Source: a virus
IMG/VR virus record: IMGVR_UViG_3300032401_001693
Location: 1 to 64,000 of that record
Length of the DNA stretch: 64,000 nt
Direction: 5' to 3' (one strand)
Within the stretch, counting starts at the first letter, position 1. Each line of letters opens with the position of its first letter. This document shows positions 13,516 through 56,630 of the stretch, piece after piece. The notes beneath the pieces are model-generated. The model saw only the letters and a list, made by a program, of their open reading frames with translations. It made no database searches and was not told the origin of the DNA. Made by a program: the position numbers and the translations under genes.

Positions 13516-14928
13516 GTGCGTAAAAGAGTCCCATCCCACCATCTGATACCTAAGAAAGTCCCAGTAAAAGGCAAGACACCATATATTGCAGTAAGATGGG
13601 TTGCTTTAGGTCCTGCAGAAACCAAAAAAGAGATAAAAGGTTGGGTAAGAACCAGGAAACGAAGAACCTCTGCCGTTAGATACCTACAGAAACATCCATT
13701 AAGTGTTGAAATCATTCCAAAATCTGAGTTGGAAAGAGTAATAGAACCTAATAAGGCTGGGAAGCGCTACTTTTCTAAGAAGGAAGTTGAAAAGATTAAG
13801 TTCGTAATGGAGATGAAGAATCCTAGTGAAGCTAATGGTATAACTAGGATCATACATATGGAGAGTGGTGGTAACTATATCCAGCATGTGGATGAATGGA
13901 CTCAGAAAAGGAAAAGAACCAAGTTTAAACGAAGTGCTAAGATTAAAATGGGTGGTCTTAGGGAATACTATAAGTCTTTACTTAAGAGACCCGGAGCGGA
14001 TAAGAAAAGGCAGTTAGGAGCTGTTCTGGCACTAATGAGTGGAGAATGCCACGATCCTCCCAAGAATGTTAGAGTGGGGAGTGGTATTGGTGGTGTAGAA
14101 GAGTCAGTTATAAAGGTAGCTGATCTTAAACGAGGAATGGTTGTATCTCATACGGGTTGGAAACCTGGGACGCTGCCGCATGTAGTGGTAGAAGAAAAAG
14201 ATATCCATGGGATGAAGCATATCTTTCTTAGGAGTATAGACAAGAAAGAGGAAGGGAAAGAATTAGGTAGATATAGGAGTAAAGTAAAGACCCTTGAAAA
14301 GCAGTTGCTTAAGGATCCTCGTAATATAGATAAGAAGCTAGAATTAGAGACTTTCCAGAATAAAGCAACCAAATTGGCTAATGAAATCAATATATCTATC
14401 CCACCTAAATGGACTGAAGTGACTAGATTAGGTCACTATGGTGCCTGTCAAATAGAAGCCCGCCATGTTAAATTCCCAGCTCCTAATGAAGTATGGTTAG
14501 ACTTTATCGGTAAATCTGGAGAAAGATGGAATCTAAAGATAATAGATCACGATTTAGCCGAAGCTATAAAAGACTGCCAACGCGGTAAATCTGGTAATGA
14601 TCAGATATTCCCAGAGGTAGATCGTAACGAAGCTGCTAGAAAAGCTAAGAAGTATGGCATAGCAACACCTAAAGATATTAGAACTTACACGGGAACTAAG
14701 GTTTACGTGGAAGAGTGGAAGAGGCATACCACTCCTACTACTAAGAAAGAACTCAGGGAAATGAAGAAGGACGTGTATACGTTAGTAAGTCAAAAATTAG
14801 GTAATCTACCAGGGACGGCTAAAGGTTCCTATGTAGATCAAACAGTGGCAGTAGCTTTAGAAGCGGGTGTATTGGAGAAAATGAATCTAAAAAAGTCGAT
14901 GCTGTATATAGTAATGGAGGCTATATGA
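13516..14928 (+). CDS. DNA topoisomerase IB (bacterial/viral type)
   Basis: Catalytic motifs VRVG, FIGKSG, PKDIRT, LGN, SYVD. Confidence 0.85.
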   Translation: MRKRVPSHHLIPKKVPVKGKTPYIAVRWVALGPAETKKEIKGWVRTRKRRTSAVRYLQKHPLSVEIIPKSELERVIEPNKAGKRYFSKKEVEKIKFVMEMKNPSEANGITRIIHMESGGNYIQHVDEWTQKRKRTKFKRSAKIKMGGLREYYKSLLKRPGADKKRQLGAVLALMSGECHDPPKNVRVGSGIGGVEESVIKVADLKRGMVVSHTGWKPGTLPHVVVEEKDIHGMKHIFLRSIDKKEEGKELGRYRSKVKTLEKQLLKDPRNIDKKLELETFQNKATKLANEINISIPPKWTEVTRLGHYGACQIEARHVKFPAPNEVWLDFIGKSGERWNLKIIDHDLAEAIKDCQRGKSGNDQIFPEVDRNEAARKAKKYGIATPKDIRTYTGTKVYVEEWKRHTTPTTKKELREMKKDVYTLVSQKLGNLPGTAKGSYVDQTVAVALEAGVLEKMNLKKSMLYIVMEAI

Positions 14929-15002
14929 AACAGATTTATGTAGTTAGTCTAGGAGAAAGGGTAAGCGGGAACTATGGGAAAGCTAAACAAGAAAGTAAAT
15001 AA
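14925..15002 (+). pseudogene. truncated member of the MKQVYVV leader family
   Basis: MKQIYVVSLGER..., 25 aa, SD GGAGG. Confidence 0.45.
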
Positions 15003-15148
15003 GTTTGGACCTATTAAATACTATTTTTGTAATTACTGTGGTAAAGGTGTAAGTTCGATTAATATAGTTTGGGGGTGGAACCCAGGACCATCAATCTATT
15101 GCTCAGAGTCTTGTAAAACTAAAATAGACAAAAAGGAGGTTTTACCAA

Positions 15149-15394
15149 ATGAAACAAGTTTATGTAGTAACGTTGGATGAGGAGTTTGAGAAGTCTAAGT
15201 TGGAGAAAGGCAGAGGCCCAGATAAGAAACCTAGAAAAAAGAGAACTAATAAGTGGGCAGGTTACAAAGAATATGCTGCTAAGATGAAAAAGAAATATCC
15301 TAATGAGCCTGCTCAGAAATGGATGAATGAGTGGACTAGTCGGTTCCCAAGTGATAAGAAGAGAATGAGAAATTTTTTGAATACGATTGGCTAG
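15149..15394 (+). CDS. leader-family basic protein (putative internal head protein)
   Basis: MKQVYVVTLDEEFEKSKLEK|GRGPDKKPRKKR. Confidence 0.7.
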   Translation: MKQVYVVTLDEEFEKSKLEKGRGPDKKPRKKRTNKWAGYKEYAAKMKKKYPNEPAQKWMNEWTSRFPSDKKRMRNFLNTIG

Positions 15395-15654
15395 AAGATG
15401 AGGAAGACCTTTTAGCTGATTTAGAAGACTATGCCCCAGATCAAATACTAGGGGCTAAAGATATCAAACCTAGGAAAAAGAGAACTCGAGGGAACTGGTA
15501 TGCCCCAAAAAGTTATGAAAAAAAGATGAGTTTGAGAAGTCTAAGTTGGAGAAAGGCAGAGGCCCAGATAAGAAACCTAGAAAAAAGAGAACTAATAAGT
15601 GGGCAGGTTACAAAGAATATGCTGCTAAGATGGAAAAGAAATATCCTAATGAGC
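15389..15654 (+). repeat. mosaic of duplicated fragments from neighbouring genes
   Basis: Pieces match ~15947-16005, ~16083-16147 and ~15179-15308. Confidence 0.75.
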
Positions 15655-54409: not shown

Positions 54410-54432
54410 TTATATAAATCATAGTATAGAGG
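54410..54432 (+). promoter_or_regulatory. candidate late promoter
   Basis: TTATATAAATCATAGTATAGAGG before the scaffold SD. Confidence 0.55.
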
Positions 54433-54450
54433 AAAGGAGGTGATACAGGA

Positions 54451-55155
54451 GTGACAGAAGAGCTGAGGAAAGAAGAGGGGAAGGAGAAGGAAGAGAAGGT
54501 CGAAAAAGCCGAATCTACCATTACCGAAGACGAATTAATCAAGACTATTAAAGATCTTGAGGATATCGTCAAGGCGCGTAAGAAAATGGAAGAGGAAGAA
54601 GAGGAAGAAGAGGAAGAAGAGGAAGACGAAGAAGAGGAGAAATCCTTTACTGGCAACTTCGAAGATAATGAAACCTTCGCTAAAGCTATTGAAGTTTCCG
54701 ACTTCTTAAAAGCCCTTGTTGAAGAGACTGAGAACACTCTGGATGCAATTGGTGACTATGTGATGAAATTGGAGAAATCAACTTCCAAATTTGACACAAA
54801 GTATGTTGAGTCTCTGGGAGAAGTTGGTAAGATTATCAAAGGTCTTGAAGGTTCCATTAAGGAGCAGTTTGGCAAGATTGATGAAAGACTTACCAAAATT
54901 GAACAGACACCAGCAGGGTCTCCAAGATCTGTAGTTAAGAGTGGGACGGTCTTAGAAAAATCGTTTGGTACCGGTGATGGTAGTACAGTGCCGGAAGGTA
55001 TTGATGCATTGCCGAAGAGAAAGGTAGTGGAGCTTCTGGAGAAAGCAGTTTCTGACGGAAAGATCAAAGACAGCGTGCTTTTTACCTATGAAGGTTCTCC
55101 AAAACCCGAGCTTACAGATGATCAGAAAGACATTTTGAAGGCCTATATCAAATAG
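54451..55155 (+). CDS. capsid scaffolding protein
   Basis: Acidic coiled coil, poly-E, directly before MCP, many x-x-K|[SAG] sites. Confidence 0.7.
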   Translation: MTEELRKEEGKEKEEKVEKAESTITEDELIKTIKDLEDIVKARKKMEEEEEEEEEEEEDEEEEKSFTGNFEDNETFAKAIEVSDFLKALVEETENTLDAIGDYVMKLEKSTSKFDTKYVESLGEVGKIIKGLEGSIKEQFGKIDERLTKIEQTPAGSPRSVVKSGTVLEKSFGTGDGSTVPEGIDALPKRKVVELLEKAVSDGKIKDSVLFTYEGSPKPELTDDQKDILKAYIK

Positions 55156-55211
55156 GTTTAGATGAAAGTTTTTTAACTTGATAGAAGAAAAGAAAGGAGG
55201 TGAAAACAATA

Positions 55212-56630
55212 ATGATAGGGATAAAGGACTATGAGCACATGGACGGATTTGGGATGTCCACTTGGGAAGAAGTTGCTCAGTTGAACAAAGCCTTAGCGGC
55301 AGGCTATGATATTCCTGCAACATCAGGGGGTGTTAGTGGATCTGCTATTAGGGTTGAGTCTCTGGAAGCTTCTCTTAAAGTGATCACTTTCCAGATGCAA
55401 CACGTTAGGTTTTGGCAGAAGATCCCCAAACTTCCTGCTTTTAGTACTGTTGAAGAATACAACCAGTTGACTTCCTATGGTTCAGACGCTGGTGCATTTA
55501 CCCCTGAGGGCGAGCTTGGTGAATACGATGACGCTGTGTACGCCAGAAGGGTTTCATTAGTTAAGTACCTGCAGACCGTTCGGAAAGTTACCCATCCATT
55601 AACACTGGTTAGGGCAGCTCACGGCGATGTGGTAGGGAATGAAATCCGAAATGGAATTATGTGGCTGATTGGTAAAATCGAGAACTCAATGTTCTGGGGT
55701 AATAGCAAACTTCGTCCGTTAGCAGCTGAGGGTTATGAGTGGGACGGCCTCAATCAGTTGATTGATGCCTCGATGGTTGTTGACTGTAAGGGAGATCCTC
55801 TTACAGAGGACATTATCGAAACTGCTTCTAACACTATAGTTGAGAACTACGGATTTCCAACTGATATCTTCATCGGCACAAAGCCGTTGTCGGATCTAGC
55901 CAAAGTTATGTTTCCTAAAGAGAGGATTGTTGTTCCTATGACAGCAGGCCAGGTTGGAGTGCCTCTTAATACCTTCGCATCTCAGGCTGGTATTTTAGCA
56001 TTTAATCCTGATGTCTTTTTGAAGAAAAAGACTCCTCTTACCGTAGCTTCGTCAGCCAAGGCTCCTACAGCACCTGCTAGTTTAACAGCGGTTAAATCTA
56101 GTACTGGTACTTATACAGGGGACTGGACAAAGACTGGTAATGGTTGGGGAACGTATTACTATGGTGCGTCGTATGGTAACAGGTACGGCGAATCTGCTGT
56201 TTGTGTTAGTGGGTCTAACATCTATGATACTATCGTAGCTGATACGGATTATATGACCATTACAGTGGTCAACGCTTCCTATACTATAGCTCCAGAGTAT
56301 TGCAACATATACAGGACTGTAGCAGGAGGTGGATCAACTGGTACCAAGTATCTTATTTCATCTACGGCAGTGGATAGCACTACCTCTGGTGGTGGCGGTA
56401 CTACGACCCGTATTGACAAGAATGAGATTTGTGCAAATGTCCATTCAGTATTCATTGGTGAGTTGACTCCTCAGGTTATATGTTTCAAGCAGCTCGCTCC
56501 AATGATGAAAATGGATTTAGCAGTGATTGAACCTAGCGTGAGATGGTTGCAACTTTTGTATGGTACGATGCAACTTTTTGCTCCGAAAAAGTGGATAAAA
56601 ATTTCTAATATCGGGGAAGCAACCGTATAA
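55212..56630 (+). CDS. major capsid protein (SPO1/Twort-like)
   Basis: LNK|AL.AGY, AIRVESLE, STVEEYNQL.SYG, E.DGL, LAPMMKMDLA, YGTMQLFAPKK; SD AGGAGGTG before ATG 55212. Confidence 0.92.
   Translation: MIGIKDYEHMDGFGMSTWEEVAQLNKALAAGYDIPATSGGVSGSAIRVESLEASLKVITFQMQHVRFWQKIPKLPAFSTVEEYNQLTSYGSDAGAFTPEGELGEYDDAVYARRVSLVKYLQTVRKVTHPLTLVRAAHGDVVGNEIRNGIMWLIGKIENSMFWGNSKLRPLAAEGYEWDGLNQLIDASMVVDCKGDPLTEDIIETASNTIVENYGFPTDIFIGTKPLSDLAKVMFPKERIVVPMTAGQVGVPLNTFASQAGILAFNPDVFLKKKTPLTVASSAKAPTAPASLTAVKSSTGTYTGDWTKTGNGWGTYYYGASYGNRYGESAVCVSGSNIYDTIVADTDYMTITVVNASYTIAPEYCNIYRTVAGGGSTGTKYLISSTAVDSTTSGGGGTTTRIDKNEICANVHSVFIGELTPQVICFKQLAPMMKMDLAVIEPSVRWLQLLYGTMQLFAPKKWIKISNIGEATV

Follow-up and report, generated by a model that had tools for sequence, protein, structure and literature searches.

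Why do proteins of unrelated function, encoded among the head genes of one phage, begin with the same few residues? The window analysed here, a stretch of 64,000 nucleotides from a viral record of 101,811 bp, comes from an uncultivated myovirus and represents its expanded head-morphogenesis module. We consider it probable, though well short of certain, that about a dozen unrelated proteins, and also segments of a polyvalent protein, bear a portable tag of two parts by which they enter the head, to be clipped there and later injected. In this reading we infer cleavage of the cargo, its encapsidation, the role of a basic arm, and ejection, which the initial annotation would place before any transcription.

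Two leader families are found. Leader A (8 aa; M-[NK]-[YF]-[IV]-[IV]-L-[EK]-K) heads the ORFs at 35638, 35931, 39212, 39775, 41978 and 44185, and leader B (14-15 aa; [ST]-L-D-E-[EV]-[FL]-E-K) is found at 15149, 16020, 17040, 17123, 17992, 24238 and 53953. Both are beta-prone. The initial annotation had listed the same two families, and each leader is present where it was placed, that of ORF 53899 starting at Met19 (53953). All copies stand in frame at the start of ORFs on the + strand; neither pattern has a match in the other five frames of the window or in bases 64-102 kb of the record. The earlier figure of more than 20 tagged accessory proteins was an overcount, as 13 ORFs have an N-terminal leader (two of them, 17040 and 24238, being fragments and one, 44185, being frameshifted) and five more proteins have the module at an internal or C-terminal position or lack the leader. 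The features at 13-25 kb, which mostly carry leader B, are:

13516-14928, + strand: Topo IB-like protein, leaderless, with basic arm-like N-terminal segments
15149-15262, + strand: leader B (15 aa) and basic arm of an 81-aa protein (15149-15394)
16020-16118, + strand: leader B and basic arm of a 59-aa protein
17040-17221, + strand: exact 83-nt tandem duplication
17992-18981, + strand: 329-aa protein with N-terminal leader B and arm
24238-24348, + strand: truncated 36-aa ORF with leader B and the start of an arm

The first copy of the tandem duplication (17040) is a 28-aa dead-end ORF, and the second (17123) provides leader B and the arm of a 95-aa protein. Because decayed copies of the 15149 gene type also occupy 15445-15818, this gene set evidently duplicates actively, and the shared N-termini might be a mere trace of recent duplication, or of a common 5′ expression cassette, without function. 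However, the DNA upstream of the leaders is unrelated from copy to copy and their codons differ synonymously, so the leaders are conserved as protein and not as DNA. Moreover, the downstream proteins are unrelated, the unit is internal in many proteins, and it is kept across phages whose MCPs (major capsid proteins) are 76% identical or whose proteins have diverged far more. This explanation is already disfavoured, and we regard it as very improbable.

Upstream of the portal gene, the B-type genes at 15-18 kb adjoin radical-SAM genes, a position that we count against the head-cargo reading. The small ORFs at 15149, 16020, 17123 and 24238 could instead encode RiPP precursors whose leader is recognised by the adjoining radical-SAM enzymes (20625, 21631): they are short, combine a conserved leader with variable tails, and flank the cluster containing the two radical-SAM genes on both sides. 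Yet leader B also heads the 329-aa protein and the head-module protein at 53953, recurs internally in the former (unit at 18568-18675), and in other proteins (P0043, P0049, P0055 and P0018) is fused directly to KGK arms and enzymes. The tails, in turn, are rich in Lys and Arg with no Cys/Ser/Thr-rich core; the predicted mature form of the 16020 product has 44 aa and a pI of 10.7. A RiPP function thus seems most unlikely. The ORF at 24238, directly upstream of the portal gene, is probably a remnant or a frameshifted gene.

Closer to the capsid genes, leader A predominates:

34949-35641, + strand: 230-aa protein with a 13-aa leader ending FLK↓A (the arrow marks the predicted cut), then a degenerate KGK-type arm
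35638-35931, + strand: 97-aa protein with leader A (8 aa) and KGK arm
35931-37412, + strand: 493-aa PI3/PI4-kinase-like protein with doubled leader A and basic arm
39212-39778, + strand: 188-aa DUF5661 protein with leader A, without basic arm
39775-41802, + strand: 675-aa protein with N-terminal leader A and KGK arm
41978-42511, + strand: 177-aa ART-like protein (sub-threshold Pfam match) with leader A and KGK arm
44185-45061, + strand: leader A and arm (44185-44367), then a GNAT-like body (44306-45061; sub-threshold Pfam match)
45386-45724, + strand: 112-aa protein with a complete C-terminal unit
45772-50496, + strand: 1574-aa MuF polyvalent protein

The tag consists of a beta-prone leader ending hydrophobic-x-K↓[A/S/G] and, immediately after the cut site, a strongly basic arm, either an RTRKGK hairpin or GAKDKKxRK, or in relatives also KAWxTR. 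This two-part nature had been missed by the initial annotation. Thirteen ORFs have the unit at the N-terminus. It also recurs within the polyvalent protein (three copies), within the products of 39775 (second unit at 40354-40470, VMEK↓A), 17992, 53899 and 45386 (whose last 31 residues are LLQK↓A and a KGK arm), and within the prohead protease. In the kinase-like protein the doubled leader spans 18 aa and ends VLEK↓A. As a point against our reading, leader and arm do not always occur together, since the 39212 product has leader A without an arm and the Topo IB-like protein has arms without a leader. The latter had been described as leader-tagged, but begins directly with basic segments, which resemble the arm of the kinase-like protein. 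For the proposed ART and GNAT cargo, leader A and arm are indeed present, whereas the domain names rest on sub-threshold matches; in the GNAT-like case a frameshift near 44306 separates leader and arm from the body, of which P0035 is an intact homologue. After cleavage the arm is predicted to stay as the new N-terminus, and the predicted mature cargo is basic (pI 9-10.7, with 10.7 for the 35638 product). The arm, which also recurs inside polyproteins and on the protease and varies between related phages in cargo and protease alike, qualifies as the address label no less than the 8-15-residue leader, whose contribution may be only the P-side of the cut site.

What would cut at this site? The head genes that follow suggest an answer:

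52380-53642, + strand: prohead protease, domain at aa 1-~190
53899-54387, + strand: 162-aa DUF6496 protein, leader B from Met19
54451-55155, + strand: acidic scaffolding protein with a poly-Glu tract and 10 h-x-K↓[ASG] sites (h, hydrophobic)
55200-56630, + strand: MCP

MCP, protease and scaffold are all distantly homologous to SPO1/A511-type (Herelleviridae) proteins. The protease is homologous to head maturation proteases (phrog_1028, E 5e-48), is 36-42% identical to Herelleviridae proteases, and has invariant H66 and S124. Its C-terminal extension repeats the MCP N-arm (53076-53165) and then has a cut-site-plus-KGK-arm unit (53295-53411), and the DUF6496 protein, between protease and scaffold, has a second such unit at 54235-54321. 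The MCP has a single h-x-K↓[ASG] site, K30↓A31 (QLNK↓A), which closes its propeptide (55200-55289). The mature A511 cps peptide is annotated from residue 24 (NC_009811), and its K↓S junction aligns exactly with K30↓A31; the PDB MCP chain 9row (439 aa) likewise starts at the position equal to A31. The claim that the tag ends in the MCP maturation site thus holds, in that the two share one motif form and the site corresponds by alignment to the experimentally annotated one of A511.

The sites previously noted in the scaffold (all 10) and the protease (K20↓A, K165↓S and K190↓A) are also present. Compared with per-protein shuffles, the motif [LIVMFY]-x-K-[ASG], admittedly a loose one, occurs 10 times in the scaffold (1.5 expected, z 7), 10 times in the protease (2.9), 19 times in the polyvalent protein (7.5) and 76 times across 34.9-56.7 kb (40, z 6). 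Only head proteins are enriched; elsewhere in the genome the count stays near expectation (68 versus 71.5), and five control motifs had no comparable enrichment (highest z 2.8). We infer that the phage's own prohead protease recognises the hydrophobic-x-Lys↓Ala/Ser/Gly end of the leader.

The polyvalent protein combines MuF, 2H/Acb1-like, CCA-adding enzyme with HD, NTase-like, HExxH zincin-like and small C-terminal domains. Three cut-site and KGK-arm units serve as inter-domain linkers (46978-47094, 48502-48618 and 49201-49317), and the 19 motif sites cluster between domains; cutting is unlikely at some that lie inside folded domains (K82 in MuF, K717 in HD). The tagged standalone homologue P0051 aligns to residues 915-1076 and starts exactly at a predicted cut site, INK↓A, and standalone P0032 ends 3 residues past the position of K1471↓S.

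Alternatively, the units could be uncleaved structural linkers in ordinary intracellular early or late proteins, the K-[ASG] being part of a small fold and the basic hairpin binding nucleic acid or protein in cytoplasmic phage enzymes. The arms are themselves highly conserved, and the AF2 model of the ART-like protein has a hairpin within the arm (residues 15-24), although residues 1-41 are of low confidence and lie outside the globular part. In distant polyvalent proteins, moreover, KAW arms are preceded by G-T and not by Lys, so arms may serve a role unrelated to the prohead protease. Against this, three unrelated arm types follow one common h-x-K↓[ASG] junction, which equals the MCP maturation site; scaffold and protease are enriched in the motif at sites that have no arms; standalone homologues start and stop at junctions; and the genes lie between those for portal, MuF, protease and MCP, one carrier being itself a MuF head protein. 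We therefore regard uncleaved linkers as unlikely.

A related proposal keeps the cleavage and dispenses with encapsidation: leaders would be removed in the infected cell, for activation or zymogen control or as polyprotein economy, by another peptidase (the polyvalent HExxH segment, the papain-like enzyme at 31953 or a host enzyme). Embedded metallopeptidases have been proposed to autoprocess polyvalent proteins (Iyer, Burroughs, Anand, de Souza and Aravind 2017, PMC5512222), a zincin-like HExxH lies at polyvalent residues ~1370, and a C1 peptidase is encoded at 31953. However, the site fits the specificity of the prohead protease implied by the MCP and scaffold sites, the unit is present on that protease itself, and MuF proteins are head components according to literature cited in PMC5512222. 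Cleavage by another enzyme is in our view rather unlikely, somewhat more so than the absence of cleavage.

The prohead-protease reading gains from the distribution of the tag. A profile search recovered 254 carriers among 1.84 billion representative proteins. In 219 of 241 non-self modules, the arm core follows K-[ASG] at a distance of 5-10 residues, a statistic that is partly circular because the search profile includes those columns; P3 is L/I/F/V/M in 212, and 123 have an N-terminal position, the modal leader length being 8 aa. The tag is portable, as had been proposed, in that one leader heads unrelated domains both in this phage and across about 250 clusters of metagenomic proteins. Leaders and arms are also recombined: B leaders precede KGK arms in P0043, P0049 and P0055, and A leaders precede a B arm in P0016 and a KAW arm in P0184. 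Elsewhere (G004), at least 10 tagged genes adjoin portal and MuF genes. Between two relatives the arm type differs in cargo and protease alike, KGK arms being present here, also in the protease, with no KAW arm in the genome, whereas a relative with a 76%-identical MCP has KAW arms on its protease and most cargo; this comparison covers two phages and two protease homologues without known context.

Several known systems are similar in part. The capsid targeting sequence that the gp21 prohead protease of T4 cuts from IPI-III and Alt (Mullaney and Black 1996, cited in PMC10052503; reviewed in PMC9026906 and PMC9958956) is also a short N-terminal propeptide common to unrelated head-internal proteins and ending in the protease consensus; its cargo is basic and includes an ADP-ribosyltransferase, and cleavage at sites of this kind also breaks down the T4 scaffold. 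Its sequence is unrelated, however, and its site is hydrophobic-x-Glu rather than hydrophobic-x-Lys before a small residue. Nor does it share the conserved basic arm predicted to remain on the mature protein, or the use of the whole unit as polyprotein linker and on the protease. Its function was demonstrated experimentally, whereas that of the present tag is putative. In the giant phages phiKZ, 201phi2-1 and SPN3US (gp175/gp245 protease; PMC10052503, PMC7411985, PMC5694885), one self-cutting prohead protease cleaves many head proteins at a simple consensus, removing N-terminal propeptides possibly at several sites, and the protein cargo that these phages eject is large. They differ in having a motif with Glu at its end, long propeptides of varied kinds instead of a compact, portable tag, and no MuF polyprotein or recurrent basic arm; the phage described here is related to Herelleviridae, not to jumbo phiKZ-like phages.

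The MuF-anchored polyvalent proteins described in PMC5512222 likewise have MuF followed by several effector domains (2H, CCA/HD, NTase-like, zincin-like) in a head module, and tagged relatives of the present proteins carry ART-PolyVal and similar domains. The processing proposed in that paper is by embedded metallopeptidases, whereas the linkers here match the prohead protease site, recur as cut-site and arm units, and also head standalone single-domain genes; a term search of PMC5512222 returned no mention of such linkers. A511/SPO1-type phages share homologous MCP (about 45% identical to that of Bacillus SPO1-like phages), protease and scaffold, an identical aligned cleavage position at Lys↓Ser, a scaffold rich in x-K↓S sites (as also in the Herelleviridae phage CP-51) and an MCP N-arm copy on the protease. 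The cargo tag, however, is absent from all 52 of the other loci related by MCP (0.8 Mb), and neither the 20 kb of tagged accessory genes nor the MuF polyprotein extends beyond the subclade of this phage.

In the course that we propose, tagged proteins and the arm-bearing protease would enter the procapsid, probably by way of basic arms able, perhaps, to bind the acidic core formed by the scaffold (pI 4.5, net charge -26). Once activated, the protease would degrade the scaffold, trim the MCP, remove the leaders and cut the polyvalent protein into single arm-bearing enzymes. The basic products would then remain with the DNA and exit along with it at infection.

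Judging from the identities of its MCP, protease, scaffold, portal and polyvalent genes, listed below, the window corresponds to the head module of an uncultivated phage with a distant relationship to the Herelleviridae; accessory genes have enlarged it by about 30 kb. The IMG/VR virus contig measures 101,811 bp (CheckV completeness estimate 53%), and all real genes of the window are carried on the + strand.

Head-module genes of the window
24753-27953, + strand: portal, 1066 aa
45772-50496, + strand: MuF polyvalent protein, 1574 aa, with MuF, 2H/Acb1-like, CCA-adding enzyme and HD domains
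52380-53642, + strand: head maturation protease (phrog_1028, E 5e-48)
54451-55155, + strand: scaffold (phrog_15087)
55200-56630, + strand: major capsid protein (MCP), SU10_MCP family, ~45% identity to MCPs of SPO1-like Bacillus and Lysinibacillus phages

The initial annotation described two families of N-terminal leader peptides on accessory proteins, and both were recovered where it had placed them. Leader A (8 aa, M-[NK]-[YF]-[IV]-[IV]-L-[EK]-K) starts six ORFs and leader B (14-15 aa, ending in [ST]-L-D-E-[EV]-[FL]-E-K) occurs seven times, and neither pattern matches the window's remaining frames, on either strand, or the other 38 kb of the genome. The DNA 5′ of the leader start codons is unrelated between copies, Shine-Dalgarno-like purines excepted, and the leader codons vary at synonymous positions; selection therefore acts on the leader peptide, and a reading of the repeats as 5′ cassettes was set aside. 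The six A-type and seven B-type leaders head proteins with different Pfam domains or none, so that proteins unrelated in other respects have a short N-terminal peptide in common, as in the class of the T4 capsid targeting sequence (CTS). That these shared N-termini are a mere trace of paralogy strikes us as highly improbable.

Several individual assignments needed revision. The estimate of more than 20 tagged accessory proteins falls to 13 leader-bearing ORFs plus five proteins with the motif elsewhere; predicted mature polypeptides could exceed 20 if the polyvalent protein is taken to yield about six of them. The Topo IB gene (13516) carries no leader; its ribosome-binding site is good. Leader B is present at 17040, but the ORF there is a dead end and represents the first of two exact 83-nt tandem copies (17040-17205); the duplicated unit spans the ribosome-binding site and first 25 codons of the gene at 17123, and its first copy reads into the second ribosome-binding site and then stops. 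Either the duplication is recent or it arose in the assembly as an artefact. Leader B is also present at 24238, but on a truncated ORF of 36 aa, and in ORF 53899, where it starts at Met19 and not at the ORF start. Copies of the small basic B-type genes that have decayed or been truncated lie at 15445-15818 and 24238-24400, and this gene family seems to duplicate and erode fast. Finally, leader A is present at 44185, but its GNAT-like body (44306) is split off: within 44185-45061, leader plus arm and body occupy different frames, with the switch falling where the intact form, database protein P0035, reads through. The switch is a frameshift, a sequencing error or a programmed shift.

The leader is only the first half of the tag. 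Directly after the h-x-K|[A/S/G] junction comes a basic arm, which after leader A is a predicted hairpin built on RTRKGK-x-E-x-V and after leader B a GAKDKK-x-RK-type stretch. The complete unit of leader-like strand, junction and arm also occurs between domains of the polyvalent protein (three copies), at the C terminus of g45386 (ORFs are named by window start), internally in g39775, g17992 and g53899, and in a C-terminal extension of the protease. No Pfam family matches leaders or arms. An AF2 model of g41978 did not include the tag in a globular domain; the model was poor (mean pLDDT 55) and was excluded from fold assignment. We also considered the possibility that the B family consists of RiPP leaders, which would sit only on short precursors with a modifiable core beside tailoring enzymes. 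However, leader B is found as well on a 329-aa protein and on a head-module protein, at internal positions, and fused to KGK arms and enzymes in other phages; the RiPP reading is barely credible and was set aside.

The junction itself resembles a capsid maturation site. The GenBank record of Listeria phage A511 annotates mature Cps from residue 24, after Lys, and in our alignment (A4) this K23|S24 junction falls exactly on K30|A31 of the window MCP and on the LNK|A of Bacillus phages. A deposited MCP chain, 9row, begins at the residue equivalent to A31, and the window MCP has no h-x-K-[ASG] site besides K30|A31. The proposal that cargo leaders and MCP propeptide share one junction thus holds, and the cargo leader appears to end in the consensus at which the phage's own prohead protease would cut. 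The suggested comparison of head-region and other genes also came out as predicted. Relative to per-protein shuffles, h-x-K-[ASG] sites are raised in the scaffold (10 vs 1.5 expected), the protease (10 vs 2.9), the polyvalent protein (19 vs 7.5) and 34.9-56.7 kb overall (76 vs 40), whereas beyond 13.5-56.7 kb they are at expectation (68 vs 71.5). Five control motifs, with Arg or Glu at P1, other P1′ classes or the motif reversed, gave no comparable enrichment, and the highest control z, 2.8, came from the polyvalent protein with the reversed motif. The scaffold of Bacillus phage CP-51, a member of the Herelleviridae, is likewise full of x-K|S sites.

The candidate enzyme is a prohead protease of Herelleviridae type: residues ~10-200 share 36-42% identity with the CP-51, SPO1-like and SP-10 proteases, and H66 and S124 are invariant (alignment A6). 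It has no Pfam match, its protease domain has no sequence relative in the PDB, and a search of viral_contigs with the protease as query yielded no confirmed relative. A complex prediction of the protease domain (1-195) with a leader-plus-arm peptide scored 0.00 and carries no weight either way. As a separate observation, protease residues 233-262 (53076-53165) are a ~30-residue copy of the mature MCP N-arm (55290-55370), with the pattern AG-x-D-x-P ... GG-x-SGSA-x-R-x-ESL. The copy is conserved in the relative with 76% MCP identity, in metagenomic homologues and in the CP-51 protease, where EVEK|A immediately precedes it (see also L029:8351-9115 and L005:7132-8679). It may be a docking element of this protease family in the procapsid.

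The 1574-aa protein is a bona fide MuF polyvalent protein of the class described in PMC5512222. It has an N-terminal MuF domain (Phage_Mu_F, PF04233, residues 57-163, E 7e-13, confirmed in a second check) and unrelated effector domains (2_5_RNA_ligase2/Acb1-like, PolyA_pol with HD, and tRNA_NucTran2_2; at least two are expected of the class), and its gene is part of the head module, downstream of the portal gene (24753) and upstream of those for protease, scaffold and MCP (52380-56630). Within its first 920 aa, eight h-x-K-[ASG] sites fall in 355 linker residues vs two in 565 Pfam-domain residues. An NTase-like segment is homologous to the database protein P0051 and an HExxH segment to P0032. 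Standalone P0051, 53% identical to polyvalent residues 915-1076, begins at the INK|A junction, and standalone P0032 ends three residues past the position of K1471|S; thus, the predicted cut sites coincide with natural protein ends. The units might instead be uncleaved structural linkers, but with such natural ends we regard this as unlikely. P0051 also matches Tad6, in a C-terminal part missing from the window protein, so no Tad6 domain is claimed for the window.

Iyer et al. (PMC5512222) ascribe the processing of polyvalent proteins to embedded metallopeptidases, and a term search of that article returned no mention of cut-site-plus-arm linkers. Cleavage by a peptidase other than the prohead protease, without packaging, is in our estimate quite improbable; the junction matches the specificity that the MCP and scaffold sites suggest for the prohead enzyme.

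The cargo is varied. Among the domains initially assigned to it, the leaderless Topo IB (PF01028), a PI3/PI4-kinase-like domain, and PolyA_pol and HD of the polyvalent protein lie above Pfam cut-offs, as do DUF5661, DUF6496 and the polyvalent MuF. The 2H matches of the polyvalent protein (2_5_RNA_ligase2, Acb1) are present but just below the cut-offs, and the ART (g41978) and GNAT (g44306) assignments rest on sub-threshold Pfam matches only. Predicted mature cargo is basic (pI 9-10.7), the small B-type proteins would yield polycations of 44-80 aa, and the scaffold has a pI of 4.5 and a poly-Glu run.

Other genes of the region deserve mention. Inside the tagged cluster lies an untagged M14/AstE-AspA-type carboxypeptidase-like gene (37691-38482), with an apparent counterpart, judged from a similar N terminus and not formally compared, in the cluster of another contig, G004 (32457-31660, - strand). 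Carboxypeptidases of this type can trim C-terminal Lys, and a connection to the Lys left by cutting after Lys is pure speculation. Between 18990 and 24000 there are two radical-SAM genes, 20625 (Pfam match) and 21631 (CxxxCxxC motif only), with neighbouring genes; a collagen-like repeat protein (22699) follows, and the cluster has B-type small genes to its left and right. The gene for a C1 peptidase of the papain family (31953-33905) contains a clear intein (Intein_splicing, E 2e-14), and the portal gene (24753-27953) has a weak intein-splicing match (E 2e-4) below cut-off.

The tag is not confined to this phage. An exhaustive search of 1.84 billion representative proteins with the unit profile found 254 proteins at E<=1e-3. 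In 241 rescanned non-self modules, K-[ASG] lies 5-10 residues ahead of the arm core in 219 (P1′ Ala 159, Ser 49, Gly 11) and P3 is L/I/F/V/M in 212, statistics that are partly circular because the K-[ASG] columns are in the profile. About half of these modules (123 of 241) sit at the N terminus, where leader length has peaks at 8 aa and 14-15 aa. The halves recombine freely: B leaders were seen before KGK arms, and A leaders before B arms and before KAW arms. Few of 101 tagged database proteins have any Pfam match; those found are C39 peptidase, ART-PolyVal, YunG-like, Tad6, ADP-ribosyl exotoxin and GNAT. The unit was found at none of 52 other Herelleviridae-like MCP loci, and a 33-aa unit used as tblastn query matched nothing among the GenBank phages, an expected outcome at such short query length.

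Genomic context was read for three other phage records. Two of them, the closest relatives G001 and G002, have MCPs 76% identical to that of the window and keep the MCP site, the MCP-like protease segment and, in a polyvalent protein of 2242 aa, a KGK linker. In most of their cargo a third arm, KAWxTR, comes straight after K|A or K|S; this arm is absent from the window phage's genome, and in the G001/G002 protease it sits where the window phage's protease has its KGK arm. The third record, from a more distant phage, is G004 (IMG/VR 2721755344_000002, 114,307 bp). Its NCBI entry bears the name of a Candidatus Woesebacteria bin, and a 76-kb stretch of it is additionally entered in IMG/VR as a provirus. 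A portal, MuF and at least ten tagged cargo genes make the contig look like a phage genome; the tagged genes lie beside homologues of the portal, two membrane proteins and MuF. No MCP was found in G004, whose record ends inside the MuF gene; the head genes are therefore simply cut off, and the idea that the tag travels there with a different capsid was rejected. A degenerate DNA pattern for the unit gave three loci, one of which (G003) was discarded as a chance match with no module. In two distant, apparently GC-rich polyvalent proteins, P0188 and P0190 (ADP-ribosyl exotoxin; zeta toxin with NUDIX), KAWxTR arms follow G-T|S-E-G and not K|S. On this evidence the arms may be older and more widespread than the Lys-specific cut site.

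We think it probable, though well short of assured, that the leader is a protease-site strand and the arm a procapsid label or anchor, and that the products are cut and leave with the genome. The sequences themselves establish the anatomy of the motif, its enrichment, modularity and distribution, and the homology of the MCP site. In the biochemical chain of events that we infer from them, the leader would supply the P-side strand of the prohead-protease site, and the arm would bring both cargo and the protease itself into the procapsid, plausibly by engaging the acidic scaffold, and would later hold them on DNA. Maturation would strip the leaders and dissect the polyprotein, and the cleaved products would exit with the genome. 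A more general proposal, which we offer tentatively and with some doubt, is that the arms (RTRKGK hairpin, GAKDKKxRK, KAWxTR) are interchangeable capsid address or retention labels, with the protease sharing its label with the cargo. MuF polyvalent proteins generally would then be true polyproteins, cut in the procapsid by the prohead protease, not by their own metallopeptidases, into separate effectors that each keep an arm and exit together with the DNA.

In function the tag would resemble the T4 CTS and the propeptides of phiKZ/SPN3US-type phages. Nevertheless, the T4 site is L/I-x-E whereas P1 is Lys here, no sequence relation was found, and the h-x-E-[ASG] control motif is not enriched; by this comparison the tag is an analogue of the CTS, not a homologue. 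Full-text literature searches with the motif strings found no paper. New here are a tag that is compact and Lys-specific, the conserved basic arm that forms its second half, the further use of this tag to link polyprotein domains and on the protease, and its spread through a clade of uncultivated phages.

Phages inject pre-made proteins, and to our knowledge only in very few cases has a loading signal been defined (the T4 CTS, and long propeptides in phiKZ-like phages). Even if our reading is wrong, the arms remain a short and strongly conserved motif, so far uncharacterised, that marks where domains meet in phage conflict proteins. If it is true, they belong to a compact, modular, naturally recombining tag with more than 250 examples, which would also be a candidate cassette for packaging foreign proteins into capsids; were the arms address labels shared with the protease, 30-40 residues of leader, cut site and arm would be enough to load any protein into such capsids. 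It would also answer how MuF polyvalent proteins are dissected, in a form testable in E. coli without the host. Moreover, the injected arsenal of a phage could be listed from sequence alone: here it would comprise Topo IB-like, kinase-like, ART-like, 2H/Acb1-like, CCA/HD and small histone-like basic proteins, and elsewhere it would include Tad6-like, C39 peptidase and ART-PolyVal domains.
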